Assembly: GCA_044892525.1 (NCBI GenBank)
Contig: CM097885.1
Span: 78,244,001 to 78,308,000 of the forward strand
DNA: 64,000 nucleotides
Direction: 5' to 3'
Source of the DNA: Schmidtea polychroa
Taxonomy: Eukaryota
The notes beneath the pieces were generated by a model. That model did not search any database. It saw nothing but the letters and a program-made list of their open reading frames with translations, and was not told where the DNA came from. Shown here piece after piece: positions 6,733 to 44,855 of this stretch (positions within the stretch are counted from its first letter, which is position 1; each line of letters starts with the position of its first letter). The position numbers were made by a program, and so were the translations under genes.

Positions 6733-6945
6733 TAGACTTTCATCACTGTCTTACACCGCTCGCTGCAAAACAGCCTCTAGGCTCGATTTTCGGTAATCAG
6801 TCCTGTTCTAGTTTTCTCCAGCCGAAAAACCTTTTATTTAATTATTGGACCTGCAATGGAGTTAATCAGCTCGTTTGATGTCTATCAAGATTGGCTTTGG
6901 TTTGGTTCAGTTGTTTGCGCGAGTTTCTCGGTGTATCAAACGAGA
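6733..6945 (-). pseudogene. Unknown coiled-coil ORF family, copy 8 (3' end abuts the hAT end)
   Basis: Manual translation RKQLNQTKANLDRHQTS*LTPLQVQ*LNKRFF/RLEKTRTGLITENRA*...VMKVYT aligns with copies at 39395 and 44855. Confidence 0.7.
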
Positions 6946-7199
6946 ATTAAATAAAAATCAAACGTCGATTATTTGTAGGTTTTCAGAATTAAAGGAATCC
7001 AAAATCAAACAACAGTAAACAAAAATATATACGAGAACTCCTGGGGATGGAAACAAAATAATCAAAATGATCAAAAACAACATATATACAGCAACTTACA
7101 AAAAATACATACACAATCAAAAATCTACAGTAACAAGTCAAGTCTAAAATTTGGAGCATCCAGACCTGCGTTGAATCGTGGTGGAATTCAAGTTGCAGG

Positions 7200-8562
7200 T
7201 AATGATGCTGGAGGGTTAGACTAGTTAAATACTTGTATTTGAGGTTGGGCGAGGGTGGTCATTTGCGCGACCCACCATGCTTTAGCTCTTTGTCTACGCA
7301 TTTGGCCCGTTTTAGTAAAATGATTCTTTTTGGAATTTATGGAGACCTCAGTTGTGGATACATTTGGAGGAGTGACCTAATGTGAGATAGCAGCACTACT
7401 CTCATGAATTTGTGTCTCAAATTATATGGTTGACACTATATGGTGAATCAAATATCTTTGGGTCGGATATTTTCGGCAAAAGGCTTTCCAATTCGCCTTG
7501 GGTGTAGGTCTTACATATGGCGTAATGCTGTCATTTCAAAATATCGGCGGCGCTCGGCTTTCAGTTATTAGATCGTCGCGGCACTTCTATAAACTGGAGA
7601 TCTTTCGGTGAAGCTTTAAAGCTTTAGTTGATTGGAGCCAAGAGGCCTTCATTTGGTTTTCCTTTTCTGCAACTTTGAAACCTGTTCTTTAAATTTCCTT
7701 ATTTCGAATCGCGCAATTGTAATTAGCTTGGTTATTCGTCTGGGTTTTGGTGTTAGTTAAAGTGACCAGACGTCCCGGATTATGCAGGACTTTCCCGAAT
7801 TTAAATCGTATGTTCTGCATAAACAATTGTCCCGGAAAGTGTCTCGTATTGTACATTGTACCTAATTATTGCTATCTATTTGTGAAGTAACTTTTCCAAT
7901 TAAATAACACTTCTTTGGTTTAACTGGTAACAATTATTTAAATTCAAAAATTCAAATGTTTCAATTCAAGTATGTCATGAGCTTTTAACGAATTCATATT
8001 GCTTAACTATTTAAAAAAAATCTATTTCTATAATTGCTATTTCAGTTTCAAAAGAATAAGTGTACAAAACAAAAGTGCAAAGTTTATGTTTAAAATCAGT
8101 TTAATTTATTATTCATATATATAAATCACTTAGAAAAGGCTGCCGAAAATTCCTGAATATCAAAGAAAACTATCAAAGAAATTTAAGTGTTTTCATTTTG
8201 CTTATTTTTTTTCTGTTTCTTTTGTTTTTTTCTTTATTCGTCTTTTTTACCCATAAAATGTATAGTTATATAATAGAATATTGTACATTGTAAGTTGTGT
8301 ACAATATGATCAGCTGGGTTAAATAATCAGTATACAATCTTTATACAATTTAAATATGAAATATACACACATTCTTCTAGCGAAAAAACAAAAGTAGTGT
8401 TCTTGTCATAGTATTCCACAATGCACACGTTATTAGTGTGTATTCGTGCATAGGTTTAGTATAAATTGACCAGACGTCCCAGATTATGCGGTTTTAATTT
8501 GAAAATGTCCCGCATTCCAACAAAAAATATCTGGTCACTTTAGTGTTAGTTGAAGTGTTCAT
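7200..8562 (-). pseudogene. Unknown coiled-coil ORF family, copy 7 (split by a MITE)
   Basis: After removing the MITE at 7758-8542 and allowing frameshifts: MNTSTNTKTQ...KFKEQVSKLQKRK/MKASWLQS...L*KCRDDLITESRA...KTYTQGELE...KKNHFTKTGQMRRQRAKAWWVAQ. The C-terminal part closely matches copy 5 (NHYTRTRRMHR*RAKARWLAG). Confidence 0.7.
7758..8542. mobile_element. hAT-type MITE, ~785 bp
   Basis: 13-bp TIR TAAAGTGACCAGA...TCTGGTCACTTTA flanked by an exact 8-bp TSD GTGTTAGT (7750-7757, 8543-8550). Subterminal gacgtcccNgattatgc repeats; no ORF. Confidence 0.9.
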
Positions 8563-8685
8563 TCTTTACAAAGAAAAGACCAAAATCTTATTACTTTGTA
8601 ATGTAACGTTAATTGGTTGTATATAATTTTTTAATATAATTACAAATTTTAATATTTATCTTTCTTTTCAATCCAGCAAAATGAA

Positions 8686-8743
<58 letters not shown>

Positions 8744-9462
8744 TAATTTACTATAGAGAAATTACAAACTAAAAATCCAAAAACAAAATAGAGAAAAAAT
8801 CAATAACTCCATTATTTCGATACAATAAAAGGAAATACAATCCGAGAAGAAAGAGAAACATACAAAAAAATTTAATAGCCCAAAGCAATTACAATCCGAG
8901 AAGAAAAGAAATATATAAAGAAATAAATAGTCCAAAGCAATTCTTCTAGCTGACTAGTCGGAGAACCATATAATCTCAGAATCCTTTATTGGAATCCTAT
9001 AGTGTATTTTCACTGACGATTGTCCTACAAATATCGGAAGTTTGTCTATAGTAAATAACATTCAAGATCCACTTCCTCTGTCTATTTAAGAAGTATTTAT
9101 ATTCGTTAATAAATTTTGTTATTTTTCGTTAATAGTTAGTNNNNNNNNNNNNNNNNNNNNNNNNNNNNNNNNNNNNNNNNNNNNNNNNNNNNNNNNNNNN
9201 NNNNNNNNNNNNNNNNNNNNNNNNNNNNNNNNNNNNNNNNNNNNNNNNNNNNNNNNNNNNNNNNNNNNNNNNNNNNNNNNNNNNNNNNNNNNNNNNNNNN
9301 ACATACATACATTCCAGTTGTCCCAAAACATTTTTTAAAGGTGACTCTGCTGGGTCTGACAAATTTCTTAACCACATAGATAATAACATATCTACACATA
9401 TATGACAACGTAACGTTAATATTATACATTAAATGTTTAGTTAACTAATAAATTACTCATAT

Positions 9463-10261
9463 TGTTGGGTATTTTGTTAAGTCTGTATCTCGGTCTGACT
9501 CCTTTGTGTTCTTTTGAAAATTAAGTAAACAACCCAACACAAAAATCTTTATTTGAGACTAATACAGTTACACTTTGGTTATACTTTTTATTAATTCAAA
9601 CTCACTTGGTAAACCCTTTTTTGATCTGCACTTTTCAATGCAACTACAAATCTTACGTAGGGATAAATCTTCCAACGGGAAATGTTCCTTTCTGGTACGT
9701 TCGATTTAAATTATTCAATTGATATTAACTTCAAAGTTTTCTTTGTTACTCTAGCTATATTTCTCGTTTTCTTTTCTTGACCAACTGGCAATTCTGTTTA
9801 TTTGCCGGTCGCTTTTTGTAATTGATTTTACTTTGTCAAATTAGTCAAATTGAGGAATTTGCTCGTCTCCTTTGAAAGCTTGCCCCAATTTAATTTTAGT
9901 TGGCTGATTTAATTGTCTTTCCTAATTTGATTGATAATTCAGGTTCTCTCAAATCGCTCAGGTTTTTCATTGTCTTGGGTTTCCCATTAGCTCGGGTTCG
10001 TCACTAGTTAATTAATTTTTAATTAATTTTTGTTTTTTGTAATTTATTCCTTCTAGGGACCCCCCCCATTGATTTTATTTTATTAAAGTTGAACTCGTCT
10101 CATCATTCGGCATCCGCCCATACCAGTTTCCCTAGGAAAATATTCATTTTTAATTTTTTGATTATTTTAATTAATATTTTGTACTTTAAATTTTTATTGA
10201 AAATTTGGTGTTTTTATTGATTTTCACCTCATTTTTGTACCTCTCCTGTTTAACCCCAACA
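9463..10261 (-). mobile_element. Solo LTR (Gypsy-like family C)
   Basis: TGTTG...CAACA termini with 4-bp TSD ATAT on both sides. Homologous in reverse complement to ~62672-63446. Confidence 0.8.
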
Positions 10262-10419
10262 ATATTACGAAAACAAAATTTAACTCAAAACGAATTTAGT
10301 CATTTTTTTATTTGTGGAATTCCAAATTTTTATCCTACTTGTCTTATTAACCGTCAACCTCATTCTACTGTTTTCTCAGTCATTCTACATCTAGCAGCTT
10401 AAGAGGCCGGCATCAATTT

Positions 10420-11700
10420 TTAGGAAATTTAGAATAGTTAAATGTAATAAAACTATCAATTATGATATTTTAAATTAAAACTTATATTTTATTTATTTTC
10501 ATTAAATAAGTATAATTAATTAATTAATTAATTAACAAAATAAATTTGATATACATAAAAAATACAAAATAAAACTATATTATTTTCAATTCTTTTTTAT
10601 TTGATTCAAAAAATTATCACAAATCATTTTAGTATGATTATTACATGTATTTTGAGCGCAACTGGGGTATCCTACTTTTTGTTTCAATAAATGGCATTGT
10701 TTACATCGTTTATTTCCTGATGAAATGGAAGGTGCCGTAGAATTTTAGCATTTGTTTTTATAAAACAGTTTATACAACTAATTGATTCTTTCAAGTCTTT
10801 GTTACGTAAATTTTGATGCTGTCATCGCTGCAATTTCTTCCAAAAATGTATTTCTTCTGTCGTTCTTTTTTATATTCCAATCTTTATAAATATTTGTGTA
10901 TATAAAATTTGGCAACCAATGCACTGATATCTAAAATATTCCTAAAATATGGTAATTCCTTACGTGTTGGTAACTCTTCACTCTCATCGCTGTGGTAAGA
11001 GTTGACACTCAAATGATCAGTATCTTCTGATTCGTCACTACTGTTTCTTTATTATTCTTCCTAATTTTGGATTTTTGGTAGCAGACGAATTTCTCATCAT
11101 TCAAGAAGCGAAACCTTTTTAGAGATATTCAAGAATGTGACATAACTCGAAGAGTTCACCTGTCCACATCGCTGATCTCCACTTGGTCAGTCTACCAATA
11201 GGCTAATTTTGATAATGCTAAATTTTAATGAGTCGACAGTGGGCCGCATTTGGACATCCATGTGCAAAAGCATTCCAAAAACTACTAGGAAGTCAACTTT
11301 AGATTTTCACTTTGGCTTGTCACAACATCCAACCGATCTTCGATAAAATCTTTGGGCTGTCTCATAATAAATAAAAATAAATGACAATCAAAAATCAAAA
11401 TTATTTATGAAAATTTATTTAACATAAAAAAATTAAATGAAAACAGTAATCATAAAAATTTACACGTTCCCACACGGTACGGCTTTAGCCATCCAATTTT
11501 TGGTGATGTTATAGACAAATCACAACTATAGCCGACATAATTTTTTTTATTAAAAAAACAAATAACCCTAGTTAGCACAACGGGTACTAATGCATTAATG
11601 CAGAGTTACGACCAACAAAAAATGTTGTAACAGTCTGTATAACTTATTTATATTTACTTGTCATGACCCCTCCCCTAATAATTAGCATTGGCGTTTCGAT
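10420..11700 (-). mobile_element. piggyBac-like transposase remnant (C-terminal part)
   Basis: Minus-strand fragments FRNILDISALVAKFY...RRNTFLEEIA and a Cys-rich tail KRCKQC...CAQNTCNNHTKMICDN typical of piggyBac. Boundaries approximate. Confidence 0.65.
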
Positions 11701-11940
11701 AAAAAAAATTTCTGTTTTTTTTCATAAAATGATTATTATTTGTATAGTCAAAAATATTACTTTTTGTTTTTGTTTTGTTTTGAACAAGTCAGTTAGTTTT
11801 AACAGTCAGTTTAAAAGTCTTTTTCTGTTAGGATTAGTTGCTGTTATATATTGGATCGGTAAGTATATATTTTTAGTGAAATAAATACTTCTGGAGTATG
11901 TATATTCTCGCTTTATGTAGGATATTTATTAATCCTTGAA

Positions 11941-13000: not shown

Positions 13001-13154
13001 GATATTATTATGATTTTATAGATTTGATAGCGATTGTTTATTCCAAATATGATATGATTTCATAGATTTTATTAATTATTACAAATAAGTAAATAATTAA
13101 GACAAGCATAATGAAAAACATAAAATACACATAATATAAATAAATTTATACATA

Positions 13155-13307: not shown

Positions 13308-13813
13308 TTAAATACGTAATGAAGTGTAAATAAAATAAAAATAATATATTTTAGCTTTAAAAACTTTATTAATATCATTGAAGGAAGGTTGAAGAAGATA
13401 GTTGAGACTCGTCATCTGACCCTTCAACGAATCTACCACGCATCCTGAACATGCCGAGCCGAAAGTGACGGCAGGCTCTTTTGTCAGATGATGGGCAGGA
13501 AACACATCGTATTTGTCGAAGATAGGCAGCTTCCTGAGACGAGATGTAAGCTCCACTTGCGTGTAGATTTGGGATTGATTCTTTATTAGAATACTTTGTG
13601 CCCGGTTCTCTTCCAGGAGATTATCCCGGTAGTGTTCCACGCGTAGGATGGTTTTATTTGCGTCTTTCATCTGGAAAGGGGCAAACGATGTCCCCTCCAG
13701 ATGATCAATCTTTGCTCTCAGGAGCCTGATTTCTTCCTGATAGTTTTTGAGCAGAACATTTTTATCTGCGCAGGATTAGCACGGTTGTAGATTTGCTTTT
13801 TTTTGTTTGACAT
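13308..13813 (-). pseudogene. Unknown coiled-coil ORF family, copy 1
   Basis: tttttag-gt-ATG at 13813, a frameshift in an A-run, then LQPC*SCADKN...RAKIDHLEGTSFAPFQMKDANKTILRVEHYRDNLLEENRAQ...IYTQVEL...DVFPAHH...ACSGC. Clearly alignable to 44094..44855. Confidence 0.85.
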
Positions 13814-22851: not shown

Positions 22852-24193
22852 CACTATAGGACATTGATTTATCATAAGGACATTCAATAAGCTAAAAATT
22901 TTCATTTTTAAATCAAATTATTATCAAAATGTTCGAAGATATTTCAGAAGCTTCTTCAGAATCAACAATTCCATTTCAAGAAATTCATAGAAATGTGTAA
23001 GTTTTTCATTAAACTTTATTTATTTTTTAAAAATCGATATAGAATTACCATTAAAGATAAAGAAAGAATCATTAAATCCATGGAAGATGGCCATGATTAT
23101 TATGAATTAGGCCGTATTCTTGGAATTAAGCGGAATACAATAACCAGCATTATTTTGAAATATAAGAAGACTGGAATTTTATCCGCAGGAACAAGAGGAG
23201 GCAATCGACCAACAATTATCACAACAATTATTGGCCAGGAATTATTGAACTATGTCGAAAGAAATTATTATTCGACATTAAATCAAATGAGATTGTTTTT
23301 ATCTACAAATCACAATGTAGAAATTTCCACAAAATCAATATCCAGGTACCTGAAAAATCAATTATTAACCTTCAAAAGGATCAGGCCTTGTGTGGAAGAA
23401 AGAAATTCAGATAGAATATTGGATATTCGGCAGACATATGTTACACGTCTGCTTGAAGAAGGTTGGAGGAGCAGTAAATCTATTTATATAGATGAATGCT
23501 CTTTCAATACATGGACAAACAAGAGATTCGGAAGATCTCGAGTAGGCACTCGAATTTACAGCAATGTGCCAACAAATCGAGGTCCCAATATTTCATTAGT
23601 TTTGGCAATATCCAAAAATGGGCCAATCCATTCACAAATCATCATTGGCTCTTTTAGAAAGGAATCATACCAGTCATTTATAACAGAATTGACTGAGAAA
23701 CTGAATGGCTCTGGATTCATTTTGATACACGATAATGCATCCATCCACAATAATGTATTATCTTTGAACAATCACATAGAAAAGTTGCCTCCATATAGTC
23801 CATTTTTGAACCCCATCGAAAGTGTGTTCAGCAAGATTAAAAATGGGGTAAGGACTAAAGTTTCCTCGACTAATGGATTTTCCAGGATGAGTTTCAATGA
23901 CAGATTTATCGCAATATCCCAAGCAGTTATCGAGGAACTTAGCAAACCAGATTATAGTAATTTGAAAAATTACTATAATCATATTAAAAGGTTCTTCCCT
24001 AAATGCTTGAAGAAGCAGGATATTTTAGGTGAATTCTAAAAAATGTAATGTATATTATAATAAATAATTAAATATCTTACTTCTTTATTCATTATTTTTA
24101 AAAAAATCTTAAAATTAACTAAAATCCAGAACAAAGCTTATTTGACAAAGCTAAATGAATGTCTCATTTATGATAATTAAATGCGCTTTGGTG
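22852..24193 (+). mobile_element. IS630/Tc1-like DNA transposon
   Basis: Imperfect ~45-bp TIRs (cactataggacattgatttatcataaggacattca vs reverse complement caccaaagcgcatttaattatcataaaatgagacattca). TA at the right end; encloses the transposase. Confidence 0.75.
22929..24039 (+). CDS. IS630/Tc1-family DDE transposase, two exons (22929-22996, 23043-24039)
   Basis: HTH region, IYIDECSFN, LIHDNASIH, LPPYSPFLNPIE. The 46-nt GTAAGT...TAG intron (22997-23042) joins MFEDISE...RNV to ITIKDKER in frame. No stops. Confidence 0.9.
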
Positions 24194-25336
24194 TATACAG
24201 AGAGAATCGAACACACACTGTGAGTAGGTAAGAATTTTGCCGGTGATGATAGGAATTATCTGATCGTTATGTACTCAATTAGGGACGGAAAGCTGAATTC
24301 TCAATCAATTAGGTCATCAAATCTATTAAAACAAAATGTGTCTGAAAGTTTGATTGAGATATTCTATACGCAATTCTGACCGACGGAAATATTTGCAGAT
24401 CGTTTGAACATTATAGCTGATTAAATTAACCATTTGGCGTGCCTTAATTTCTCACTCACATTAGATATAGACAGACGTCTCATCCTAAATAAATGGTTTC
24501 ATCCTTAAGTTATTTAAAATTTAGGCGATTCGTGTACATTCATTATATTTCATAAAAGTTTAATTACATTGCTCAACCTTTGATATTGTACTAAATCGTT
24601 TCAGTTTTAGCGAAATCAAATTGAACTTAGTTTATTTAATTAGCATGATTATTCGCTTAAATTAAAATTGACTTAAATTCGAAATACATTACATAGCTAC
24701 ATTCTTAGGATATCTAGCATTTATTTAATGGCTAAACCTAGTTTGATCATCCATTTATAATCGTATGTACCATAAAAAATTAGCACCAAAGTGTTGGGCT
24801 CGAAGCCATAAAAGCTGGAGTGATGTTGTGAGAGTTGGGAACGGTGGGGAATCGTTAAAAATTCTGCTTTTTACAAATAACTTAAAAATTAGATACCACA
24901 TTAAATAAAATTAAGCGAAATAGCTAAGTGTGAAAGAAAATTAAATAATAAAAAGGGAAAAACAATAATTTAAAAATCAGCATAGAAAACCACGAATAAT
25001 GACCAACAAACCCCAAATCATGTAACCATAGCAAACACATAAATGAAAATAATTAAATGAGATAACAACAAAACAGCGGAGGATCAAAATAAATAAGAAA
25101 ATGAAAAAAACCAGCATAAAAAAATTAAATAAAAATAAAAGAAATTAAAATAACAAACCATACGCAGAATTATCAATAGAAACCCACCAAAATATAGGAA
25201 AATATAGAAATTAAATAAATGAATAGAATAATTAAATAAAAACAAATAAATGAATTAAGAAAAACAAATAAAAATCAAAAAATAAGGAAAATAGTGAAAA
25301 ATACACCCTAACTAAGTCCTGATTGGATGAAAGTAA

Positions 25337-25338
<2 letters not shown>

Positions 25339-25412
<74 letters not shown>
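25339..25412. repeat. (TA)n microsatellite; others at ~8688-8740 and ~41212-41268
   Basis: Direct inspection. Confidence 0.95.
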
Positions 25413-25418
<6 letters not shown>

Positions 25419-27163
25419 TTAATATTTCGAAGTATTTTTATGATTTATGATTTTATATGCCAATAGGGTTGAACAGTCTAGCATGGTCGTTCGATAATAG
25501 TCGGTACTTGTACCGGTGGTTTTCGAGTGAACCGTGAGAGGTGGAGAGACCGCGAGTAGATTGACAATTGCTAGAACGACAAAGAGAAATTGCGGTATCA
25601 TCTTCGAGGTGTGGGCAGGGTGGATATGCGAATAAACATCATCATAGACGATAAATCTAGGAAGATTACAATATTCTGTATGCATCGAATTTTTGAGCGT
25701 AAAACGGTCACTAAGAGCATTTTGCCGATCTTTTTCGTCCAAATTCAGCGGATAATCCGAAAATCCATTTCTGCTAATGATTAGTATATCTCTCCATTAT
25801 TTCTTAAAGATTCTGTTTGCTATTCGATAACAGTGATTCCACGGTCAGTGCTAAATTTTCCGCTTAGATGCCGTCGATAATCACATGTATATATAGATTA
25901 GCGGCAAATTTCGCATAGATTCAGTTTGCACATCAATCTCGTTTAAGCTACCGATTCGCTGTGAATATTTCATTGCCGTAAATTCTCCAATAGACACGAT
26001 CGTGCATTTCGTCGAGAAATAAACAAAGTTAGTTAATAGTTTTAGCATCACTTCCGTTTGTATCGAATTAATTTGGTTTATTGACATTGATGCCCTGCTG
26101 AGCGAAGGAGATGTGATGTGAGGAGGCGATTCGGCAAAAGTTCCTTGAACTGCTCGATAATTCTACTAGTAGCGGTTGATGACTCGTAATATTGTAAATA
26201 ACAATGTTTGAACTGCTGATTTGTTTTGCTGATTTCAACTACGTATTTTCTATTTGTATATTATAATAAACCTTTTGATAGTAATCGATTCTTGTTGTCA
26301 TAGTATACTAGAATGATTGATTTCGATAGCGATATGTACCTTGTTTGCTGAATGTGGAGTAATGTTAAAGTGATAGGGTAGGAGGAAAGGACTCTGAATG
26401 GGCCATTAATTGCGATATGGAGAGTTATTTGCCTATAACCGTGTGAGAAATTCACCTTGGCCAGTGATATTGAAATTTGAGTCTGAGATTCCGATCGTTG
26501 CGAATTTTAAACTGATTTCCCACCAGTATGTAGTAACAATCCTCGGTTCCGATTAGTTTTTGGATGTTCGGTAGCGTGATAAGGAAATGAGTGGGCTTGG
26601 ATCACGGTCTGGGATGCCATGTCTTTGGACCACAGGCGTGTAAGCGAACGTAAGAGATAAGACCTTCCATCGGCACTCAGGAACCCGCATTGTGAACATT
26701 GTGGAGAGTAGTCTTAACATAGAGGCTCACCTGTCCACAGGTTCCGACCTGCGTATACAGTTCCAACATGAACCATCTTCATGGGTATACGTACGGGAGA
26801 TGAATCGCAAACTATGAAGGGTACTTAGGGAAAGTGCTGAGCATACTAACAACCACCCTGAGTACCCAACAAAAGTAACCAATGACAAATTTAAATTATG
26901 AATGGAGGAAATATAGTTCATGATAGCAGTTTTCCGGTATTAGACATTTATAATTAAACTGAACACTTAATTGAATTAACTGATAAATATTGAGTTGCAA
27001 GTGGTTAACTTCCCGTTGGTATAATTTGATGTTATCAATATTTAATTCATTAACTTTATTGGAGAAAAGGATCCATCTAAAAATCCCTGTGCTTGTTTTA
27101 TTTCCTAATTTAGGTGTGTAGCGTCGATTATTGGTTGTTATAGCTTCGTTTTCGTTTTTAGGC

Positions 27164-27641
27164 ATGTCTAACAATCCCTCAACATCGACGATACTTTGGC
27201 CATGTTATTCTTGTACCGAGAAAAATGCAATCATCACAACCTTGCAAACCCAAATCGACTTATTGAAAAAGAAGGTGGACCATTTCGAAGGAATATGGTT
27301 CGATCGCCCACAAATGAAAGAGAAGAGGACAAAGCTGTTATGAGTGGAACATTGTCGAAATAGCCTCATCGCAACGGTTGCTCATCAAGGACCAATCCAA
27401 AGCCTTGCATAAAGTCTATGTGCAGGCTACCCTCACCAAGAAGATCACCTCGATACTCATTTCCGAAGAGGATAATGCGTTCCCAGCTCATCATTATCCT
27501 CTTGAACCGATCAAGTCAACGGGAAAATCATGTAAGAGTTGTGTGGATATGCTTCTATCGCCCACAACTCCGGAGGTCAGCATCAAGGGCATGCCATGGA
27601 CTTTTTCGACTTGGATGAGATCTTCACCATCTACTTTATGA
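27164..27641 (+). pseudogene. Unknown coiled-coil ORF family, copy 2
   Basis: tttttag-gc-ATG; MSNNPSTSTILWPCYSCTEKN...KKVDHFEGIWFDRPQMKEKRTKLL*VEHCRNSL / LIKDQSKALHKVY...NAFPAHH...SCKSC. The following non-coding tract (atattg..atcctaac.gtc.gt) matches that of copy 6. Confidence 0.85.
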
Positions 27642-28679: not shown

Positions 28680-28865
28680 ACTTTGTCTAAAAATACTGAC
28701 TATAGAAACATATACTCAAGATTTTGAAAGTGGTAATTACTGTGCTACAAATATGCAAAGTATTGTTAGAAATCTTGATTATTTAGATAAAAACTTTAAT
28801 TGTGGAATAACTCTTGAAAAATTTAAAATTAAATACCCATTTTTCACATTTGAAAATTTAAAATT
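28680..28865 (+). pseudogene. Possible Polinton/adintovirus-like major capsid protein C-terminal fragment
   Basis: QDFESGNY...MQSIVRNLDYLDKNFNCGITLEKFKIKYPFFTFENL resembles the recalled Polinton MCP motif P.F....Y...SL...L....NGI..E.F..GY.LF.FDL; short. Confidence 0.45.
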
Positions 28866-28960
28866 TAAAGCCGAAGAAGAGAGTACGCCGGAGCAATATT
28901 CAAACGGGTCCATCTGGCCAAAATGCCGACCTCAACAGAGAAGGAATTCATAAGTTGAGA
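28865..28960 (+). pseudogene. Unknown coiled-coil ORF family, copy 3 (basic C-terminus only)
   Basis: KPKKRVRRSNI/KRVHLAK resembles KPKRKRLGRNIREKLKRAKLAE of copy 4, and is followed by the same conserved downstream element. Confidence 0.55.
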
Positions 28961-29114
28961 AAACCAGAGATAATTGTACCTACAACGGGTGTCCTATTTA
29001 AATAAATACAATCTGTGTTTGAGTTAAAACTAAAGTTAGTATGTACTATATAAAGAATGATGACTGAATATGTTGAAAAGACATGATGGAATTTGGGAAC
29101 GCAATCTAACGACA

Positions 29115-29312
29115 GGGACCAATAAAAATCGGACATAGACCTTCTATCGGCAGTCCGTGGACACAGGTAAGCAACGGACAATTATAGTATGCGAATGCAT
29201 GCTCACTTCTTGCTGGTACTTAAACCCTTGATACATTACCAACGTTTATCGCTCAGTGCGTATCAAGTGGTAAAACACGTCATTGTCTCATGGGTTACGC
29301 TGAAAACAGCAC
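29115..29312 (+). other. Conserved structured element downstream of the ORF family (copy A)
   Basis: Aligns by eye along its length to reverse-complement 32958-33150. Stem CTTGATAC (29227-34) / GTATCAAG (29260-67) encloses TACCAACG. Confidence 0.8.
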
Positions 29313-29841
29313 GATAAGGTTAAATGTNNNNNNNNNNNNNNNNNNNNNNNNNNNNNNNNNNNNNNNNNNNNNNNNNNNNNNNNNNNNNNNNNNNNNNNNN
29401 NNNNNNNNNNNNNNNNNNNNNNNNNNNNNNNNNNNNNNNNNNNNNNNNNNNNNNNNNNNNNNATAATAATAATATGTGGGACTGAAACAGGCACAAAAAT
29501 ACGACAATCATTCGACGAGCTTTGTATATACTAGTTTAAAATAAAATTGATAAAATATTATTATATATAAAACATTTACATATTGAAGTTTAATTTGTTT
29601 GATTATTAAACAATAACATAAATCATGCAAACATTCTTAAAATATTTGTAATGTTTTATTTGATTATATTATTGTTTTATTTACCTTTTAAAACATTTTT
29701 TATTTACCATATTTTGTATTTACCACATTTACTCCACTCTGAGTATGTCATTTGGAAAATCACTTAAAAAGCGAAAATTAGAATGGAAAAAAACATTTCA
29801 AATTTTGTTTTATTTAGAATAAAGGTAGCATAATGTGTAAC

Positions 29842-32915: not shown

Positions 32916-32957
32916 TCTTAATGGTGGGTTACTGATGATTAAGTATTTTGCTTTATA

Positions 32958-33150
32958 GTGCTGTTACCAGCGTAACCCAGGATACAACATTGTTTTACCT
33001 CTTGATACCAGTTGAGTAATCAACGTTGCTATTGTATCAAGTGGGTGAGTGCTCGCAAAAATTGAGCTCACTAATTGCACTATAATTGTAGGGCACTCTT
33101 TGGGTCCACGCACTATCGTTAGAAGATATGTGTCCGATTTACTCAGGTCC
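32958..33150 (-). other. Conserved structured element (copy B)
   Basis: Stem CTTGATAC/GTATCAAG (33001-33041) around TAGCAACG, plus a GTGAGCTC/GAGCACTCAC hairpin; homologous to copy A. Confidence 0.8.
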
Positions 33151-33235
33151 TTTACTTACTTTCCGTCATCAAACAATCATAAGTCATAGTAAAACATGAG
33201 TTAATTTATTAAAACCTGTTCATACAGTACACTTA

Positions 33236-33634
33236 TCACATCTGAGATGCTTTTGTCGATTTTGATCTCTCTCGTTGATCTTGCTCTGCCAGCTTGGCTC
33301 TCTTCAATTTTTCGCGAATATTTCGTCCTAACCGCTTGCGCTTCGGCTTGTTTGACGGAGCTGGTGGATATATCTCGGCCAGCTCTATGTCCAGCGGCCT
33401 GATTCGCATTGTTGCTTCGTTTATCACTTGTTGATTTTTCCTAGTCTCTAATGCGCGGATTTCCGCTTTGTCCCGTTCAGCCTGGGTCTGGAGTTGGAGG
33501 ATTTGTGACGTCCTTTTTCATTTCCACCGGGCTAAACCAAGTGCCTTCGAATTCCTCGACCCTAACTCGAAGGTCTTCCGCTTGTTGTTGGGCCTGCTCG
33601 CGGTCCCTCCGTAAATTCTCAAATAGCTTGAACA
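33236..33634 (-). pseudogene. Unknown coiled-coil ORF family, copy 4
   Basis: After ttttcatttag: VFKLFENLRRDREQAQQQAEDLRVRVEEFEGTWFSPVEMKK, one frameshift, then QILQLQTQAERDKAEIRAL...KPKRKRLGRNIREKLKRAKLAE. Confidence 0.8.
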
Positions 33635-33879
33635 CTAAATGAAAATTTAGTTTATACATACGTGTACGTGATAAAGGGGGATTCAATTATGCGAAAAGCG
33701 AATTTTATTTATGTGGACAAAGGTACGCCATATTACCCCTTGGTCATTTACGATCATAAACAGGCGATAAATCTCCCTCACGACTATTTCGATAATTTAC
33801 TAGAGTGCATCAGAACAAAACAAACAACACAAAGCAAAACAAAATCAAATTTAAAAAAATTTTAAAAAAAAGTCGAAAT

Positions 33880-34270
33880 TCAACGGTGTTTCGTCAGTCT
33901 GATTAATGAATCACAGTTTGGTTTTCGCGGTCTTCCGCGTTTCCTCGGGGGCTCATCTCCGCTCTCGACCTCATCCAGTGGGATTCCCTTCTCTTCTGCC
34001 CGAAGCTGGGCTTCGATAATCCTTAATTTGTACTGGGCGATTTCTACGGCCATTCGTGCCTGATCACGGGCCTCCACTAGCTGGTTGTTGTACGGCTCCG
34101 TTTTCACCCACGCCGGGGCTTCGGGTTAAGACCCAATCCGAATCACCGGGCCGTAGTTGTCTAAGTCTCGACCCCGGTTCCAGTCGTAAATTTCGTGAAT
34201 ATCTGGTCCGGAGTCGAGTGTGATTAGCTGCCGGTTTGCTTCTTCATCAAAATTGTTGAGATTGAGACAT
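33880..34270 (-). pseudogene. Coiled-coil ORF with AT-hook-like motif, upstream of copy 4
   Basis: After an acceptor-like caattag, ~130 codons with one stop: ...PAWVKTEPYNNQLVEARDQARMAVEIAQYKLRIIEAQL...PPRKRGRPRKP. Confidence 0.6.
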
Positions 34271-37200
34271 GCCTAATTGGATAAGCATAATTAAAAGGAT
34301 TGACAAATTTATTTTCGTCTTTAAATCCCAAATTCTTATTTAGCATTGTCTTCATCCGTCTAGGTCGTAGAAGAAAGGGTAGGTCGAAATATAAAGTATA
34401 TTATCATAATTCACGTTACAAACAAAATGGTAATTCAATTATGAATTTAATCAAATCAGAAAATTATAAATTAAATTAGTATAATATTTTTCTGCTTCTA
34501 TCTTACCCTGGAGTATTCTGAGTGCTAATTCGTAAATTTTATCATTTAATCTTACCACAATTTGTTGAGCTATTACCAAAATTAACTTACTAAAATCATT
34601 GTCAAAATATTTAGCAAAATTATTATCTTAATTAAAAACTTTCGAAAAAATTTAACTTTGTTTACCTGTATTAATTAGAAGAAATTAATATTTACTTTTG
34701 TTTTTATAATATTTCGGTTATATGATATGATTAACGATATTTTAATTAAAATCTTTCGGAAAAATTTAACTTTGTTTATCTGTATTATTTACAGAAGAAA
34801 TTAGTATTTACTTTTGTTTTTAGAATATCTCAGATCATATGCTTAACGATGTATGCTTAAAGCAGTGCATAATTATCGAATCAACCAGCTCCGTCGGTGC
34901 TGGGTGAGCTGTTGGAACCCTAGGTCCACACCTCATCCTCACTTAGACAGAGTTTTCGGGTTCGGTATGGTCGTCATTTAATTCTAACTCTGTCACCATG
35001 ATTCACTCCCAGAAGAACATTGATGAGGAAATTATGACAAGTTTGGCATCGGCTACTCACTTTTATCTATCAGGAATTCGTGGATTTATGTTTTATACAC
35101 AGATAATGTTTTATATTTATACACAGAGCCGAGGAAATGAGTCCTTATTTATGGCTTCCCTTTTTGGATTTCAGTTTGCTCTAGTCAATGATAAAGAAGA
35201 TTACCACCTTGCTAATATTTATGTTCTCTCGTTGGGATTTCATTTCCCTTCTTATGGTTAAATAATGGAAATTAATTCGGAATTTATGATTTATGAGCTG
35301 GGCAACAATCTGATCCAAGCTTTGTTATTATTCCGCTATTATCCTACTGTCTTTAATTGAATTTCTATATTATTATGATTTTAGGTTGTAAAATTCTTGT
35401 TTATTATTTCACTTTGAATTCGAAGGTTCAGTGGGAATAATTTGTAACAATCAGTTGTGCAAATAAATGATTATATACGTATTTTTTACGCACTGATGAT
35501 TTAATGTAGTTTTTCGGTTTTATTAGTTATTTTGTGATTCTTTTTACCTGTCTACATAATCACACCTTCCGGTTCCAAGGAATCCAATCAACTGTAACTC
35601 TGACTTCACTATTTCTAATAATCGCATATGACATAAAACCCTCTATCGGTCGTCCAGAAATTTTAGTACATCTTCCCTTTGGTATTCCGCCTATGTTCAC
35701 AGCGTCACTAAACCTCCTGGACGTGCAGGTTGTTGATACAACACTCATGCTCGACATTCGTGAGGTCTTATTTCCATTTCCCACGACCATATCTTTTTTG
35801 TCTACGCTCTTCATCTGAGTCAAGATCATTAACCCTCTCGAAACGCCAACATGATAAAAACACTAATAATAATTAAAAATAGTAATTTTAATAATAATTT
35901 TGTTTCAATAATAATTTATTCAAATAATTATTAATAAAGATGATAATATTAGTTTTTAGCTTAATTTTTTTAATAAGACATTTAAGTACTTTTATCGCAT
36001 TGACTAGCCCCATTTTCTTATTTTATATTTATTTACCAATATGTGTTGAGATGAGTTGAGAATTAAATACCATTTGACGGCAATTAGTCAAGTTATTTTC
36101 ACTTTTTAATAATGATTGTGTGAGATAGAAGCTTTTGCTGAGTTGTGTGAATTTCATTTCTCATCTGCTTCATTATGTAGTCGTTTTCAAATTCTTGTCA
36201 CTCTATCATTCGTGTCACTCACTGGTTTTTTCAAAGTTATATTTCCAAGACTGATACTTAAGTGAAACGAATTTTCTAGATTATTTTTAACTGGTGTTAT
36301 CGATCTTGTTTTTGTTTCATTCATATTTGCTAAGGATTCTGCTTTTGATTTTGTATTTTTTAAATTCAATTCCATTTTCATGATCTTTTTAGTCAATTCA
36401 TCAATCATAATACAAAAACTTTTCAAAAATTTACCTCTTTAAACAAAAACTTCCAATAACTTGACATAAATCCAAAACCGAAAAACTCCAAAATTCGATA
36501 ATAACAACTCGAATAACCAATTGTCCACGCCTGTCTGCGCACACAAAATAAATCCAATTTCCGAGCAACAAACGCACACAGACGCGACACTTCACCTCAT
36601 GATTCACCTCCACCCCCTTGACACCTTGGTGTCAATATCATATCCCCTTTAGCTTTTTCTTCTTTTATAATTAAAGTTGGTAGTAGAGCGTGTTTCCCTT
36701 CAGGGGGCTACGCACCAGGAAAGAGAACAATGGCGCAGATAATACAGCCTTGGTTGATCAATGGTGATATTTGTTTTTATTTTGAATTTTATGTGTAAAC
36801 ATTTAAAAATGTAAAATTAACCATGCTCCCTTCCTTTGCGAGTGTGAAAAAGTGCTGCTATGGGCCCGAGGGGAACAGTTTAAATGGAAATAAAATAAAA
36901 AAACTCAGCGTTTTTGCGAGCTAATTAAAGGTTGAAGGGATCTCCTTTTTCACTCCTATCAAAAATTGCAACAATTATTTCACTTGTTTTGCCACATCGG
37001 CTTGTTCTGGTTTCATGTCAAAAACCTTTTCACCAAAAGTTGTTAAATTATATGCTACAAATTTATTTCATGTATGTTCATTAATTATTTTCTTAATTTC
37101 GATTTTATTAAATTTTTTCCTGATTAATTCCTCAACATGGAAATCCCTAAATACTAAGGTAGGAAATTCTATACTCAGACAAAATTTATAAAATAAGATA

Positions 37201-38200: not shown

Positions 38201-38699
38201 GGATAAATATTCAAACTTAATAAAATGCTTCGGAAATTCAACTTATTAATGTCAGTCTGCTTTTTCACATATGAAAATTATAAAGTGAAAATACCGAATA
38301 GCATTAACAGATGACCATTCGGAATACAGCCTAAGAAGTTGTCTTAGCACTTATATCCAAAACTACAAAAATAATGGATTCAATCCAATGTAGAGCATTA
38401 ACATCAAAAAATTCTATATCTGATTACTCGAAAAATTAATTTTCATTAAATTTGATTTCTTAACTTTTTAAAGTTATTTACATTTTTTAAAATAAAGTTA
38501 TTTAATTTTTATATTTTGACATATTTGTTTTATTGTGATGAATTTATTGCATTGTAAATAAATATTATGTAAGTACTAAAAAGTGGATCACAAACATATT
38601 TCAGATGTGAATGTAGCTCTCATACGAAAGTTAGTGGGCACCCCTACATTACACACATATCGAGCATCAAATTACGGAAACTAGGCCAATACACACCAA

Positions 38700-39300: not shown

Positions 39301-39394
39301 ATAATCACCCCGGAAGGAAAATCCGTATTAATATTAACCGTCTTGTGGTAACCTTCTCTGTGGGTCTAAATCAGTCATCACTATCCTCTAGAAA

Positions 39395-39920
39395 ATGAAC
39401 GATTCAAATTCTACAACTAAACCTTCCGCTAAGGAAATACAATTAATCGAGGATGTGCGCAAGCTGCGCGACCGCTTAAGTCAGAAGCAGAAGCAGTTGA
39501 ATCGGGTGGAAGCCACTTGGCTCGCCCCACAGAATGCCCACGCTTTAAATCAGTGAATCTTCAGGTTGGAAAAGGCTCGCGACGAAATTGTAACAGAGAG
39601 CCGAACTCAGCTATTAGTGATTCGGCGAACACACGAGCTGTTGCTGAAAATATACACCGCAATTCAGCACCACGACCTCGATCTGCACAGCCGATACCAG
39701 TTCCTACAAGCTCTTCCGTTCCTACAGTCGTACCAAACGCATCAATTCCTCTAAACCCGAGTCAGAACCACTACACAAGGACTCGTCGAATGCACCGTTA
39801 AAGAGCCAAAGCTCGGTGGCTAGCCGGACTAGCCGCCCTGGCTCCTTCATCACTTTTGACAACTGCCTTCCAGCCAATCACTCAGCCAATGCGGACCTGG
39901 ATGACTCCAACTTTTATCTA
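39395..39920 (+). pseudogene. Unknown coiled-coil ORF family, copy 5
   Basis: ctctag-aaa-ATG; MNDSNSTTKP...VRKLRDRLSQKQKQLNRVEATWLAPQNAHALNQ*IFRLEKARDEIVTESRTQ...KIYT / NHYTRTRRMHR*RAKARWLAG. Confidence 0.8.
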
Positions 39921-40109
39921 GATTACTTATGACATTAGACTCTTATCATTACCCCTTGTAACATTCACCGAAAAAATGTTTAGTCTTTTTATCTTTTTAA
40001 TGAATTAAAGAGTGTACTTGTTTCTACTCGTATTTAATTTATCGTAAATCCGAATCCTTCTCTTACTCCATTCCAAAACCCTTAGTTTATTTATACAAAG
40101 TGTCTTCAA

Positions 40110-40389
40110 GTACCGTAGACGTAAGCCCTTCCATCAGCAGTCCTGCTTGTTAGGGAAAGTGTACCGTGAGAAGTCGGATTAAGCCAGCTCATCTTTACTC
40201 GAGCTTTCCGCCGCTATATACAGTACCAACGCGTTTCACACCCGCGTGTATACAGTGGATACCTTTAAATAGTCGTGTTTGGTTTTCTAGGCGTTACCCA
40301 GCAACAGAACTTCACCCCTAGCGAAAACATCATCCGAAAGTAAGTCTTTTTTCTGAGTCAGGATAGGTAACTCCCCTAGGACGCCAACA
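40110..40389 (+). other. Conserved structured element (copy C)
   Basis: CTTCCA, GCTCA hairpin (AGCTC/GAGCT), stem TATATAC/GTGTATA (40215-40252) around TACCAACG; ends CTCCC...GCCAACA. Confidence 0.7.
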
Positions 40390-41207
40390 TAATTATTTAA
40401 AGGTCAATTTAATAAACAGATTCATTTGTTATATAATTTCAGGTTTATTATATACTGTAAAGCTGTTAATAATTCCCCTGGAGAAATATTTATTACTTTT
40501 TCAAAAGAATAGAAATGAGGAATTATTAGGTTTTTCCAAAAAATGAAATTTAACAATTATTGTCAATAGAATTGATTTAGTATATCGAAAATCTGAGATG
40601 TAAAATAAATTTAATATGTTTATTGATGTTTTGGTTTAATACTGAATATAATCTAAAAATCATATAAACATTATAAATCCATTATAATCCATTAATTATA
40701 AATCCATTCTTATTTTTTTCAATTTTCATTTTTTTTTAAATTAATAGAAGATGAGGGATTATTAGATGTTTTACAGTTTAAATATTTATAACTTATATAA
40801 TATAGAATATAAATTATTTATATGCACCGACTATAAGTAAATGGGTCATAACTGAATATGAGTTATGTAGTCCGCTAGAGTTAAATTCGAATGAACTTTA
40901 ATAAAGTGCAAGATCTGACAGAAACTGTTTGAAAATTGCAAACAATCTAATATTGATAGTTTGAAATTTTAGAGGAAAATGTTATTATTCGAAATTGATT
41001 TATGTGTGGAGTAATATTTTTACAAAAATATTTCCTTTAATGAACCTGTCTGTTTGAGATTGCTGGTTTTTTGTGATTGATTTTTGGTTCAGGATCTTAC
41101 GGAAGGATTTTAGTGGAAATATTTCCTTTATCGTCATGATCAACTGTTGGATGACAGGGGTCGAGCAATTACAGAGTTCAAACTCACGAAATATTATAGA
41201 GCAGGCC

Positions 41208-41273
<66 letters not shown>

Positions 41274-43563
41274 CAATATTTACGTAGAGCCTCAGCAGTG
41301 TCCACAATCTAAACCAATCCAATCCAAAGAATAATGTCAGAAGATTAACCATTATAATGACTATATTGGTGTTCTGTTCATTTAATGACTTAATTTGACT
41401 TATTGATTATTTAATCTTGGTAGCTTATTTATTTTGATTTATCCTTTAGTATTGGGGTGTATTTTTATTTTTACGTGTATACATTTTAATAAAAAATATA
41501 TTGGGAATCAATTAGTTATAAATTGGCATATTGAAAAACAGATGTTTGAAAAAACAACAAATTAAGAATAGTAATGATTGCAATAACACATACTTTAAGA
41601 ATAATTATAAAAAAACACATTTTAATGCTTAAAGAAAAAAATAATAAGTTTACAGTATTACAAAATAACAAAACGCATACTTGAAAATAATTATACATTT
41701 TCTAAGAATAATTAATTTTTTGCAATATTACAAAATAACAATAATTAAGGATTTATGACACATTTTTTCTTATCATAATAATAATAATTAACATATTTTT
41801 GACAGTACTTAAATACAATTACAAAATATATTAATTTAAATTTAATAGAAAGAGGGAAACACAGAAAAAGTATAATAGCGACTTAAAATCATTATTATTT
41901 GCCCAAAAGTTAAACCACTTTTTACAATCTAAAAAGGTAAATCCTTATTAGATTACAAAATAAAACAGGCACAACAAAAACGTCTAGCAAATCGCAAGCA
42001 ACATAACACGAATCACACAACACTCACACAGACAATTTACACGCAGTAATTGTATTGAGCATTGGTATTCGAATATTGAGAAAATTGTTGAGATTTTATT
42101 TGGTAAATTTTCATTTTAAAATAAATATTCAAAAAACAACTTTGTCTTTTCATATTGAGTAAATATATATAAGAACCAGTAAAGTTGGGGTTTTCGAATA
42201 ACGAGACCTCAACACAAGTATTGGAAAGTTTAACACCACTTAGTTTCTCAGATAGTCGGATGTGATGATTAGTTAAATATCGGAAATTATTTTCTTCATT
42301 CCGATATATCGCAATTTTCGTAATCGATTTCGTTGACTTAAATTTTATAATTATCTGACAGGATTCTAATCAACTGTCATATTTTTATCAGTTTCAAATA
42401 TCGGATTCAGTGTGTGGTTTGGTGTTTTATTGATGTAATCATCAAGATGGCAGTGATTTGAACTAATATGCAAATCCATATTTTCGACTTCTTACAATCA
42501 TAATCAGAAAATTTTATTATGCACATAAGACCGTCTAACAGCTCACCACAAATTACTTGCTTTGTCTCATTAAAATATGTGTGTGTGTGTGTTGGGTTGG
42601 ACTCGCTCAGGGAGCAATTTTGATAGCCATATATTGGCTAGGGTTATTATTATAATAAAAATAAATATAAATTACTAAAAATAGAAATAATTACTATAAA
42701 TAAAAAATACTAAAATAAGTAATTTATAAATAAATATATAAATAGTAATATATAATTACTATAATTAAATAAGTTAGGAATTTATTAATATAAATATGTG
42801 AACTGTTACTCAAAAAAATTAGACAAATTTTGTTTTGAGCTGAATCAATATTGATTACAAGCTACTTTCAAAAGACAATAATTTCCGCTATAAATTCAAT
42901 AAGGGTTAATAGCGTTCATTGGAAATAAGCGACAACTGAAGTGGCAATAATACTATTCAATAGAAATTAAATGAGAATTCTTAACAGCTGCTACCAAGAA
43001 AATTCCGTATATAAATAACAGAAATTAGAAAATATAACAATTTTGAACAAGCAATATCAGCTTTGTCAAAAAATCAGAAGAATTTCTTAACCATAAGGTT
43101 ATCTGAATTCTTGTATTAAACTTTAAACTGCACAACCCAACCACGAGAAGCAGCAATTCGTTAAAGCTCTTGGGGATGTAGATTTTCAAATTAACAATAT
43201 TGGTAATATATCGAAATCCTCGCAGTTTGCAAAAACAACTATGGTAACAAGTTCTTTAGTGATTTTATATATTTTCGCATCGGTTTTATTTTTTTATAGA
43301 AATGAAATAAAACTATAAAATATTGTTTAGTCATAAAAGCGTCATATATAATTTTTACAAGTAAATGGATTGGGCACCACTAGACCACCCTCCCCCACCC
43401 CGTTATAACAATTTTTTTGTTATTATTATTAATATTATTATTATAAATAATGCTCAAAATGCTGAAATTATTAATAATAATTATTATCTATCTAATAAAT
43501 TATTATTGACAGCATGCAATTTGTTAATTGTTCTTTAGCCAAAGCTATGAAAATTCTTACTAC

Positions 43564-43835
43564 TGTTGGCATATGAGGGAGAAGAAAACTCACCCAACCA
43601 TTATCATACCGACCGCATTGGTTAGCTCAGACACCTCCCATGCATACGCCAAATGATCATTTACATATTCCCACGCATGAGCCCGTGGTGATGTTCCACG
43701 TTGGTAGTGCCCATACGGGTCGGAGCTGACTAACAGGTGAGCCCCTATCTTAGGACTACTGATAGCCCGCTCGCGGTTCAGGTTCACGGGTGCCTTAGAA
43801 GGACTTACCCCTATTCATGCTTCAGTCTTGGTTCG
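43564..43835 (-). other. Conserved structured element (copy D)
   Basis: CTTCTA, GCTCA hairpin, stem CGTATGGGC/GCTCATGCG (43674-43717) around TACCAACG; ends CTCCC...GCCAACA at 43564. Confidence 0.7.
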
Positions 43836-44093
43836 ATCCTGGTCCAAGGGAACGACCGTTAGCCTACTAGCTTTCCTTCCACAACACTAAATCATTTATT
43901 CTCAAAACCAAACATATGAAAATCTTTATAAAACGGAACCAAATAGACAAAATATATTAATACCGAAATGAAAAAAAAACATCATTACACTTATTAATGC
44001 AACATCATACGGACGGTTAGGATGCACAATATTAACGAAGTTTATCAGTCAATTCACGACTCGAAATACATTCGGAATCACTCGCAAACCGTT

Positions 44094-44855
44094 TTAGTTA
44101 AAGTTTTCTCCGTCGGCAATTAACTCGTCGATGTCTACCGGCAATCTACAATCCGCGATAAACTTGATGCCGTTAGCTGGAATGATACGGAAAACTTCTT
44201 TCGAGGGAATCGTATGAGTGGTGGATATCTCTGCTATTGTCGTCTGCGCTGCAAACAAAGAAGCCTCGAGCGCCTTCATTGCATTTCTTCGTTTCTTAGT
44301 CTTCTCGGCCCTAGTTGGGTGTTTGCGTTTGCGTGATGTCGGATTTCCTCCAACAGCAGTAGATACTGTGGGTGCCACTAGGATCGGGGCCAGAATTGGG
44401 TCAGATGGACCGCCTTTCATAGGTAAGTATCCTGACAGCACTGGGGCTGGAATGGGCGGTAGATGTGAACCGTGCCCTTGACAAGCTGTAGTGGGAGTTG
44501 TAGATGACTGATGATGGAGAGGAAAGACATTCGATCCATCCAATACGGGATATTCGCGTACCCGCTTTGCTATTTCTGCCTCCGTGTAGACCTTATGGAG
44601 GGCTTCTGATTGTGCTTTTATTGTGAGCCTTTGGCATCGGCTTTCTTCTAGTAGGCTGTCCCTACAATGTTCTAACCTGAGGATCTTAGCCTTTTCCTCC
44701 TTCATCTGTGGCGGGGAGAACCACGTTCCTTCATAAAGATCTATCCTCTTCTTGAGGGCCCCTATATATAAATGAAGTTGAGAGATGTCCGAGTTCTTGT
44801 CAGCGCAAGAGAAACACGGACGAAGTTCTTGGGCGTTGTTGGATGGTGTTGTCAT
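44094..44855 (-). CDS. Unknown coiled-coil ORF family, copy 6, intact 253 aa
   Basis: Open frame starting right after ttttctag. PCFSC, heptad region, EGTWFSPPQM, RLEHCRD, KVYT, FPLHH, Pro-rich linker, basic RKRK...KKRR tail. Confidence 0.85.
   Translation of the reverse strand: MTTPSNNAQELRPCFSCADKNSDISQLHLYIGALKKRIDLYEGTWFSPPQMKEEKAKILRLEHCRDSLLEESRCQRLTIKAQSEALHKVYTEAEIAKRVREYPVLDGSNVFPLHHQSSTTPTTACQGHGSHLPPIPAPVLSGYLPMKGGPSDPILAPILVAPTVSTAVGGNPTSRKRKHPTRAEKTKKRRNAMKALEASLFAAQTTIAEISTTHTIPSKEVFRIIPANGIKFIADCRLPVDIDELIADGENFN

Follow-up and report, generated by a model that had tools for sequence, protein, structure and literature searches.

A 64,000-nucleotide stretch of the Schmidtea polychroa genome (GenBank assembly GCA_044892525.1, contig CM097885.1, positions 78,244,001 to 78,308,000 of the forward strand), hereafter the window, holds at least eight diverged copies of a coiled-coil gene, which are designated as copies 1–8 in coordinate order. 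The gene belongs to the long terminal repeats (LTRs) of giant Burro-like Ty3/gypsy elements, and the window contains solo LTRs and LTR scraps of such elements. Copy 8 (44094–44855, minus strand) is an intact gene of 253 aa and lies in a solo LTR behind a predicted promoter and a GT..AG intron. The reading that we favor, if tentatively, is that this conserved, intron-bearing gene of giant Burro-like LTRs encodes a Rev-like switch acting on element RNA.

A spliced gene in the LTRs of giant elements

Four protein searches of the genome data set G000 gave at least 150 matches each, from 2,616–6,330 first-look candidates, and the family therefore comprises at least hundreds of copies in G000. Among the matches listed, many form same-strand pairs approximately 26.4 kb apart. 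Eight paired regions were examined and yielded five independent elements (A, C, H, F and I); region B was the insertion of element A again on another contig, and regions D and G were discarded as duplications of the surrounding DNA. The five full-length elements span 28.5–36 kb and carry the gene in both LTRs, which are 97.5–99.98% identical within a pair and measure 4.24 kb in A and C, 4.0 kb in H and approximately 5.5 kb in F and I. In all five, the LTR starts with TGTTGGGCT and ends with CA, a 4-bp target duplication is present, and a conserved primer-site-like sequence, GGGGGCTCAGCCGGGAT, stands behind the 5′ LTR; it is a candidate primer-binding site, presumably matching tRNA-Pro. At 20 further loci, a simple pattern resolved the target duplication in six, and one more locus was a 5′ LTR.

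Element C (30.6 kb), which is Burro-like in size, has a single stop-to-stop frame of 4,811 codons, in which Pfam placed gag, CCHC, env, protease (PR), reverse transcriptase (RT), RNase H (RH), integrase (IN) and ankyrin domains in this order (Monjiviricetes_fusion for env, E = 2.5e-44; Ank_2, E = 1.5e-17). The arrangement PR-RT-RNase H-IN is that of Ty3/gypsy elements. Accessory open reading frames (ORFs) include RING-TRAF-MATH and RING types (MATH, E = 3.5e-25), and Pfam reported neither BIR nor BCL2 motifs in the stretches scanned, the published finding of these having used more sensitive profile searches. Given that the gene sits in both LTRs of full gag-pol elements, the carrier is an autonomous element of a known kind. 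A preliminary description of the window had considered the gene to be cargo of an undescribed, non-autonomous mobile or virus-like element, or else a rapidly turning-over gene family. The mobile, virus-like carrier was borne out; the element is neither undescribed nor non-autonomous, because full copies carry gag, env, PR, RT, RNase H and IN, and a host gene family is not supported. That no RT is linked to any copy, also stated there, holds inside the window, whereas elsewhere in G000 gag-pol has the gene on both sides. The absence of RT beside the window copies would favor a family of host genes or a non-autonomous element of a new kind, but the LTR ends, the target duplications, the primer-binding-site-like sequence and the gag-pol between paired copies speak against either, and we regard both as refuted by the paired-LTR structure, with next to no probability left.

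The solo LTR around copy 8 (43564–47892, minus strand; A subfamily) is 4,329 bp long, runs from TGTTGGGCT to CCAACA and is 94–96% identical to both LTRs of the element at G000:C1:168.37–168.40 Mb; a 4-bp target duplication, GTAG, flanks it. An inverted CCAAT box, a TATA box and an initiator-like site form a predicted promoter (47341–47391, minus strand). The CCAAT and TATA boxes near LTR nt 500 (nt 330–540) are kept in 9 of 12 LTRs examined, with the initiator-like site approximately 33 nt on in most, and from these motifs a transcription start within the LTR is predicted. A predicted leader exon of 0.2 kb (47133–47341, minus strand) ends at a GT donor, and the following intron of approximately 2.2 kb (44856–47132, minus strand) has its acceptor directly before the ATG of copy 8.

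That a GT..AG intron separates the leader exon from the ATG is seen in natural intron-less copies (L002/L004 and L184), in which the end of the leader is joined to the ATG. Two of the 30 closest copies lack exactly nt 765–2945, from GT to AG; they are both LTRs of one insertion and share one target duplication. A second, independent intron-less insertion, 78% alike, has the identical join. Deletion over the 2-nt AG microhomology is possible for one event, but is unlikely for two events at the same splice pair. The other 28 closest copies retain the intron, and packaged RNA would therefore normally keep it. A junction-pattern search of the C subfamily gave no case, two other patterns gave only insertions already known, and one of 20 extra loci was intron-less, a count that gives no frequency because these loci were chosen for an unusual frame length or close spacing. 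Of 40 non-redundant copies, 29 have a pyrimidine-rich YAG that ends no more than 14 nt from the ATG, compared with 407 of 5,395 control ATGs (7.5%); the share is 25/28 outside the KPKRKR lineage and 4/12 within it, and in 8 of these 12 rows the first in-frame Met precedes the apparent acceptor. Spliced-leader trans-splicing was set aside as a source of the acceptors, since the two natural junctions are cis joins and the LTR gene does not need it. Contigs from three runs, presumably of RNA, match portions of the gene with approximately 85–87% identity, and the intron joint is not among the joints listed for them, with 28 further joints lying outside that set.

Behind the stop codon lies a candidate poly(A) signal, AATAAA (43895–43900, minus strand); AATAAA or ATTAAA occupies this position in 8 of 13 LTR rows, a count without a chance control. 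A donor-like motif stands approximately 90 nt behind the signal in LTR A, but is not safe as a donor, with GT in 16 of 18 rows and none in the KPKRKR lineage. This motif and two covarying hairpins (43669–43809, minus strand; 18 sequences) lie near the LTR 3′ end. In the hairpins, which lie in the last 250 nt of the LTR, 21 of 30 pairs change on both sides, and covariation is 0.533, compared with 0.224 in shuffled and at most 0.173 in slid alignments; three rows were omitted as partial, junk or redundant. Taken together, these signals suggest a transcription start probably near LTR nt 550 and an end near nt 3,930, which would place the gene in an R region of approximately 3.4 kb and allow a solo LTR to make the mRNA alone. 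Because promoter motif, leader exon, intron and gene lie inside one LTR, each solo LTR is likely a self-contained gene.

The gene could instead be placed in U3, like nef or the sag gene of mouse mammary tumor virus (MMTV), with transcription beginning mainly close to the LTR 3′ end and the motif at nt 500–550 acting as an internal promoter, or with a splice from the 5′ end leading to the gene. The donor-like motif and the structured RNA in the last 250 nt recall a retroviral leader, splicing in the 3′ copy could also yield intron-less LTRs, and most internal accessory ORFs (16/21, versus 17.6% of control ATGs) have a YAG no more than 5 nt from the first ATG. However, no conserved TATA box is found near the LTR 3′ end, whereas CCAAT and TATA boxes are conserved at nt 330–540, and the natural intron-less junctions use a donor near nt 764. 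We consider a U3 placement rather unlikely.

Several features of the full elements were observed alongside. The accessory ORFs just mentioned belong to elements A, C, H and F (L032–L034, L042–L044, L094–L096 and L083–L086); with the first or second Met counted, the YAG is present in 19 of 21, the control is 396 of 2,251 ATGs, and A, C and H are kin. This pattern would fit a separate spliced or trans-spliced mRNA for each of them. Synonymous divergence between elements A and C is 0.26 in RT and 0.62 in the core of the LTR gene, which hints at LTR exchange between subfamilies or faster change of the LTR. The lineage with 5.5-kb LTRs has a second conserved ORF just upstream of the coiled-coil gene (L083:7558–7989; window 33922–34257, minus strand), with no Pfam hit and with a terminal RGRP motif that we take to be AT-hook-like. 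Next to element C (L044:9923 to L045:6268), two copies of a 352-codon frame lie in an inverted repeat of 4.3 kb, and the start of this frame presumably resembles a cyclin-dependent kinase.

The protein and a candidate Rev-like switch

To judge from substitution ratios, the gene was under strong purifying selection, as the preliminary description had supposed. The median dN/dS of the core (residues 11–115) was 0.097 over 51 unsaturated pairs, which share ancestry and are not independent, and every pair was below 1. Against copy 8, the ratio was 0.027–0.066 in 4 of 16 rows listed, the others being saturated, and it was 0.07–0.30 in the KPKRKR lineage. Identity to copy 8 falls from 77% to 21% over 35 other rows. 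The gene is shared across full-element lineages at 22–76% protein identity and diverges far faster than RT (76, 37 and 22% versus 99, 98 and 87–89%).

The model of copy 8 (pTM 0.28) has helices at residues 18–44 and 49–101 with high confidence, a basic helix at 182–213 and a short acidic helix at 242–247. Modeled as a homodimer, residues 8–128 form a parallel coiled coil scoring 0.61, compared with 0.31 for the best of three controls; the runs agree in at least 90% of contacts, and partner pLDDT is at least 78. The mark for a dimer was attained by 21 of 30 solved pairs but by none of 23 single chains (17/29 and 0/30 for eukaryotes), counts that are rough with zinc present. Dimerization through a parallel coiled coil is thus predicted, and since the two CxxC motifs meet at the coil start in the model, it is possible that they share a zinc ion. 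The basic helix, with 3 R and 5 K in 14 aa in copy 8, is predicted to bring the protein into the nucleus. Some Cys and His residues are conserved, and the last 20 residues are acidic-hydrophobic (net −3 to −7) in 17 of 28 rows outside the KPKRKR lineage, most of the others being truncated or frameshifted.

By sequence comparison the protein has no known family, in agreement with the preliminary description, which did not recognize it. Among 36 members, Pfam gave no family at the cut-off and no REV, bZIP, capsid, zinc-knuckle or RRM domain; a hit to a known transposable-element ORF1 or gag or to a host family, which had been set beforehand as a result that would refute the preliminary description, did not occur. 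The best PDB sequence match had E = 0.81, and a viral fold search gave none at E = 0.001, the query model being weak (pTM 0.28). Word-index searches gave no named family among 555 and 7 candidates, none of 18 pattern matches in viral contigs was confirmed, and all atlas rows, including bZIP-like ones, scored under 0.9 and are leads only. A full profile search found 17 remote homologues (P0001–P0017), one of which gave a probability of 99% in a profile comparison. Three of them (P0003, P0004 and P0007) have an arginine-rich run with 9–10 R in 14 aa, and two contain leucine-rich, export-like patterns. In most of P0001–P0017, the exon is joined to host domains that have no relation to it (transporter, phosphatase, actin, ankyrin and others); these fusions are likely gene-prediction chimeras over intronic LTRs, the alternative being real exon capture.

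Inside the intron, conserved stems (46630–46985, minus strand; 8 sequences) form a candidate response element. Both sides change in 20 of 57 pairs, and covariation is 0.360, compared with 0.243 in shuffled and at most 0.121 in slid alignments, although one of five measures failed to beat the shuffles. These stems and the 3′ hairpins were derived from the same alignments that score them, which favors them. Rfam, applied to six loci, named none of the structures and gave one chance match (E = 0.29).

A basic protein, predicted to dimerize and to be made from spliced RNA, and the covarying intron stems together fit a Rev-like switch that acts on intron-retaining RNA, a role that we assign to the protein provisionally and at somewhat less than even odds. 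Because 28 of 30 close copies keep the intron, the element must make both a short spliced RNA for the gene and a full-length RNA that retains the intron. The protein would be made first, from the short spliced RNA, and its dimer would bind the intron stems. Binding would let full-length RNA that retains the intron avoid splicing or premature polyadenylation and be exported from the nucleus. The element must also read past the poly(A) signal in its 5′ LTR, where the donor-like motif behind the signal would help; in HIV-1 and foamy viruses, U1 binding to a downstream donor suppresses 5′ poly(A) (PMC12789967).

Several findings weigh against such a switch. The intron stems come from eight related sequences of one lineage group, two of them nearly identical, and kinship alone can beat shuffles. 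Coiled coils dock readily in models, and the basic stretch of G000 copies is approximately half lysine and may be merely a nuclear localization signal. Of 12 LTRs, 3 yielded no promoter motif, the KPKRKR lineage among them. Pfam REV matched one of the 17 remote homologues (E = 0.0013), but at 19.1 bits versus a cut-off of 22 and maybe through arginine bias. Behind the basic helix, copy 8 shows no export-signal pattern, nor do the C, H and KPKRKR rows; in other rows such patterns are scattered. The lack of a conserved export signal bars filing the protein as a member of Rev and adds weight to a different role for the same gene and anatomy, namely that of a transcriptional activator acting on the LTR promoter, comparable to foamy virus Tas, HTLV Tax or HIV Tat. 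The dimer would then place its basic helix on DNA or nascent RNA and recruit coactivators through the acidic-hydrophobic tail. This tail, the conserved Cys and His residues and the second LTR ORF ending in RGRP in the KPKRKR lineage, which has no tail, are consistent with an activator, whereas the conserved stems begin approximately 350 nt past the predicted start instead of at +1, and no DNA-binding family or fold was matched, the bZIP-like atlas rows staying under 0.9. On balance, an activator appears possible but doubtful.

The fast divergence relative to RT would also suit a protein that acts on the host, a coiled-coil decoy blunting silencing or cell death in the manner of the element's TRAF/MATH and RING cargo. 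The element does carry RING-TRAF-MATH and RING accessory ORFs, and Burro RNA goes up on loss of SMEDWI-2, as reported in PMC8532177. However, the protein has no likeness to a host family, its core is under purifying rather than diversifying selection, and the intron stems would be left unexplained, so that a host-directed role seems improbable. Returning to the Rev-like switch, its widest form would make Burro a complex retroelement outside Retroviridae, with a complete spliced gene in a 3.4-kb R and an independently evolved Rev-like regulator that binds an intron element and is supplied in trans by hundreds to thousands of solo LTRs. We offer this as a speculative view, more apt to fail than to hold in full.

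Copies in the window and neighboring features

All eight intervals were translated, and the reading frames agree with the preliminary description, whose family of diverged copies proved real. Profile 1 was built from 34 family copies outside the window, with 10 reversed or shuffled windows as controls; with this profile 7 of 8 copies outscored the controls, the best of which reached −2.5 bits. Copy 8, the intact gene with a CxxC motif, two long helices, a basic helix and an acidic-hydrophobic tail, scored highest (357 bits). It was followed by copy 3 (149 bits; 13308–13813, minus strand), a broken gene of an old lineage, and copy 4 (84 + 72 bits; 27164–27641, plus strand), which is broken by a stop and a frameshift and keeps an acceptor before its ATG. 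Copy 7 (50 bits; 39395–40389, plus strand) has an in-frame stop and later decay and is followed by an LTR 3′ end terminating in CCAACA, which an LTR-end profile matches at 40111–40389 (E = 3e-25). Copy 6 (21 + 15 + 6 bits; 32919–34275, minus strand), of the KPKRKR lineage, combines a frameshifted gene (33236–33634), a remnant of the upstream AT-hook ORF (33922–34257) and an LTR 3′ end, and this region is 60–80% identical in DNA to the 5.5-kb LTRs of full elements.

Copies 2 and 1 scored 8.6 and 7.4 bits with profile 1 and rose to 31.7 and 15.2 bits with profile 2, built from 14 outside rows resembling copy 7 (best control, −1.3). Copy 1 (6726–6945, minus strand) is a short decayed fragment. 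The interval first given for copy 2 (7200–8562, minus strand) does contain a decayed gene, with its core at 7551–7751, but 7753–8549 is an unrelated 800-bp interspersed repeat, 85–89% identical to many places, that breaks it up. Copy 5 was recovered by neither profile at 28865–28960; its protein match, 36% over 25 aa, is weak (E = 0.04 in a stretch of 830 nt), and its support is mainly positional, an LTR 3′ end with 72–74% DNA identity lying directly downstream. We list 28865–29325 (plus strand) as a weak remnant of the gene with an LTR 3′ end that belongs to the KPKRKR lineage. The three subtypes had been given the wrong copy numbers: in coordinate order, CxxC/FPxHH comprises copies 3, 4 and 8, KPKxKR comprises copies 5 and 6, and the remainder are copies 1, 2 and 7. 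No LTR end of their own was found within the window for copies 1–4; the LTR-end element is present in 6 of the 11 closest relatives of copy 3 and in 5 of 8 further relatives of copy 7. A further, weak match of the profile, at 62127–62222, falls in basic low-complexity sequence and was dropped.

A related solo LTR (24792–26870, plus strand; 2.08 kb, target duplication AAAG) has lost the gene, has a long TA run at the place of the TATA box and keeps the 3′ hairpins. Elsewhere, the window holds an unbroken 375-codon frame for a Tc1/mariner-type transposase (22912–24039, plus strand; DDE_3, E = 5e-19). Fragments at 48126–50477 (plus strand) match protein-primed DNA polymerase B (E = 8e-7) and, weakly, Viral_Rep (E = 0.008). 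At 55574–61611 (minus strand) lies another element of gypsy type, decayed and with additional ORFs downstream; its 224-aa frame at 55968–56642 has no Pfam hit and presumably resembles an exonuclease.

Comparison with known systems

Burro/GYPSM1, a giant gypsy-like LTR retrotransposon of planarians, is approximately 30 kb long with a polyprotein near 4,900 aa (4,873 aa), according to PMC6431247. The elements described here resemble it as portrayed there in size, in a single polyprotein of approximately 4,800 aa with gag, CCHC knuckles, PR-RT-RH-IN and ankyrin repeats, in TRAF/MATH cargo, and in an in-frame env between gag and pol that resembles mononegavirus fusion proteins. They differ in that MATH lies in a downstream accessory ORF and that Pfam found no BIR or BCL2 in the parts scanned; the text of section 7 of PMC6431247 mentions neither a gene within the LTR nor an intron or a long R. 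In the literature searched, which was mostly without subscription papers, we met with no report of a gene inside the LTR of Burro, nor of any Rev-like factor in gypsy elements; the original Burro paper, the Repbase entry and figure 2A of PMC6431247 may show the ORF. The carrier is known, and what looks new is the anatomy of its LTR: CCAAT-TATA-initiator, leader exon, intron with stems, gene and 3′ hairpins.

Rev is a small protein made from spliced RNA, with a basic helix and self-association, and its structured target occurs only in unspliced RNA. The present protein would share this plan with Rev, Rex, Rec and Rem (for Rec and Rem, PMC7828637 and PMC12789967). Unlike them, it has no family match at the cut-off, no conserved export signal and a long coiled coil, and its gene lies wholly within the LTR of a Ty3/gypsy retrotransposon. 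Likewise, with Tat/TAR, Tax and foamy Tas it would have in common the form of a small nuclear-type regulator with basic and acidic parts, and structured LTR RNA (PMC12789967), but there is no homology, and the conserved stems are not at the predicted start. It differs from bZIP proteins in that the coiled coil comes first and the basic helix approximately 75 aa later, with no Pfam bZIP match, and from Gag and LINE ORF1 in the absence of capsid, zinc-knuckle and RRM domains in 36 members, gag being a separate gene of the element.

The MMTV gene sag and the HIV gene nef reach into U3. Like them, the gene described here lies in LTR sequence and would be made from spliced RNA; sag is singly spliced, according to PMC12789967. 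In contrast to both, a single LTR here contains everything from the promoter motif through leader exon, intron and gene to the poly(A) signal. The predicted R of approximately 3.4 kb is over ten times the retroviral R, given as 15–250 nt in PMC12789967, and it raises the question of how strand transfer and suppression of 5′ poly(A) cope. In taeniid flatworms, solo LTRs of ta-TRIM also start transcripts, some of which end inside the LTR, but those LTRs are small and non-coding (PMC4558846).

Solo LTRs are usually seen as non-coding scars or as promoters for neighbors; here they likely keep a whole, selected gene, and a large share of the solo LTRs of the genome could make a nuclear regulator. 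On the practical side, the LTR exon appears in database gene models fused to unrelated host domains. If the Rev-like reading is true, solo LTRs would code for a protein that regulates full-length elements. Regulation of the Rev or Tat type, were it real in a gypsy element with an in-frame env, would mean that the control typical of complex retroviruses arose more than once.

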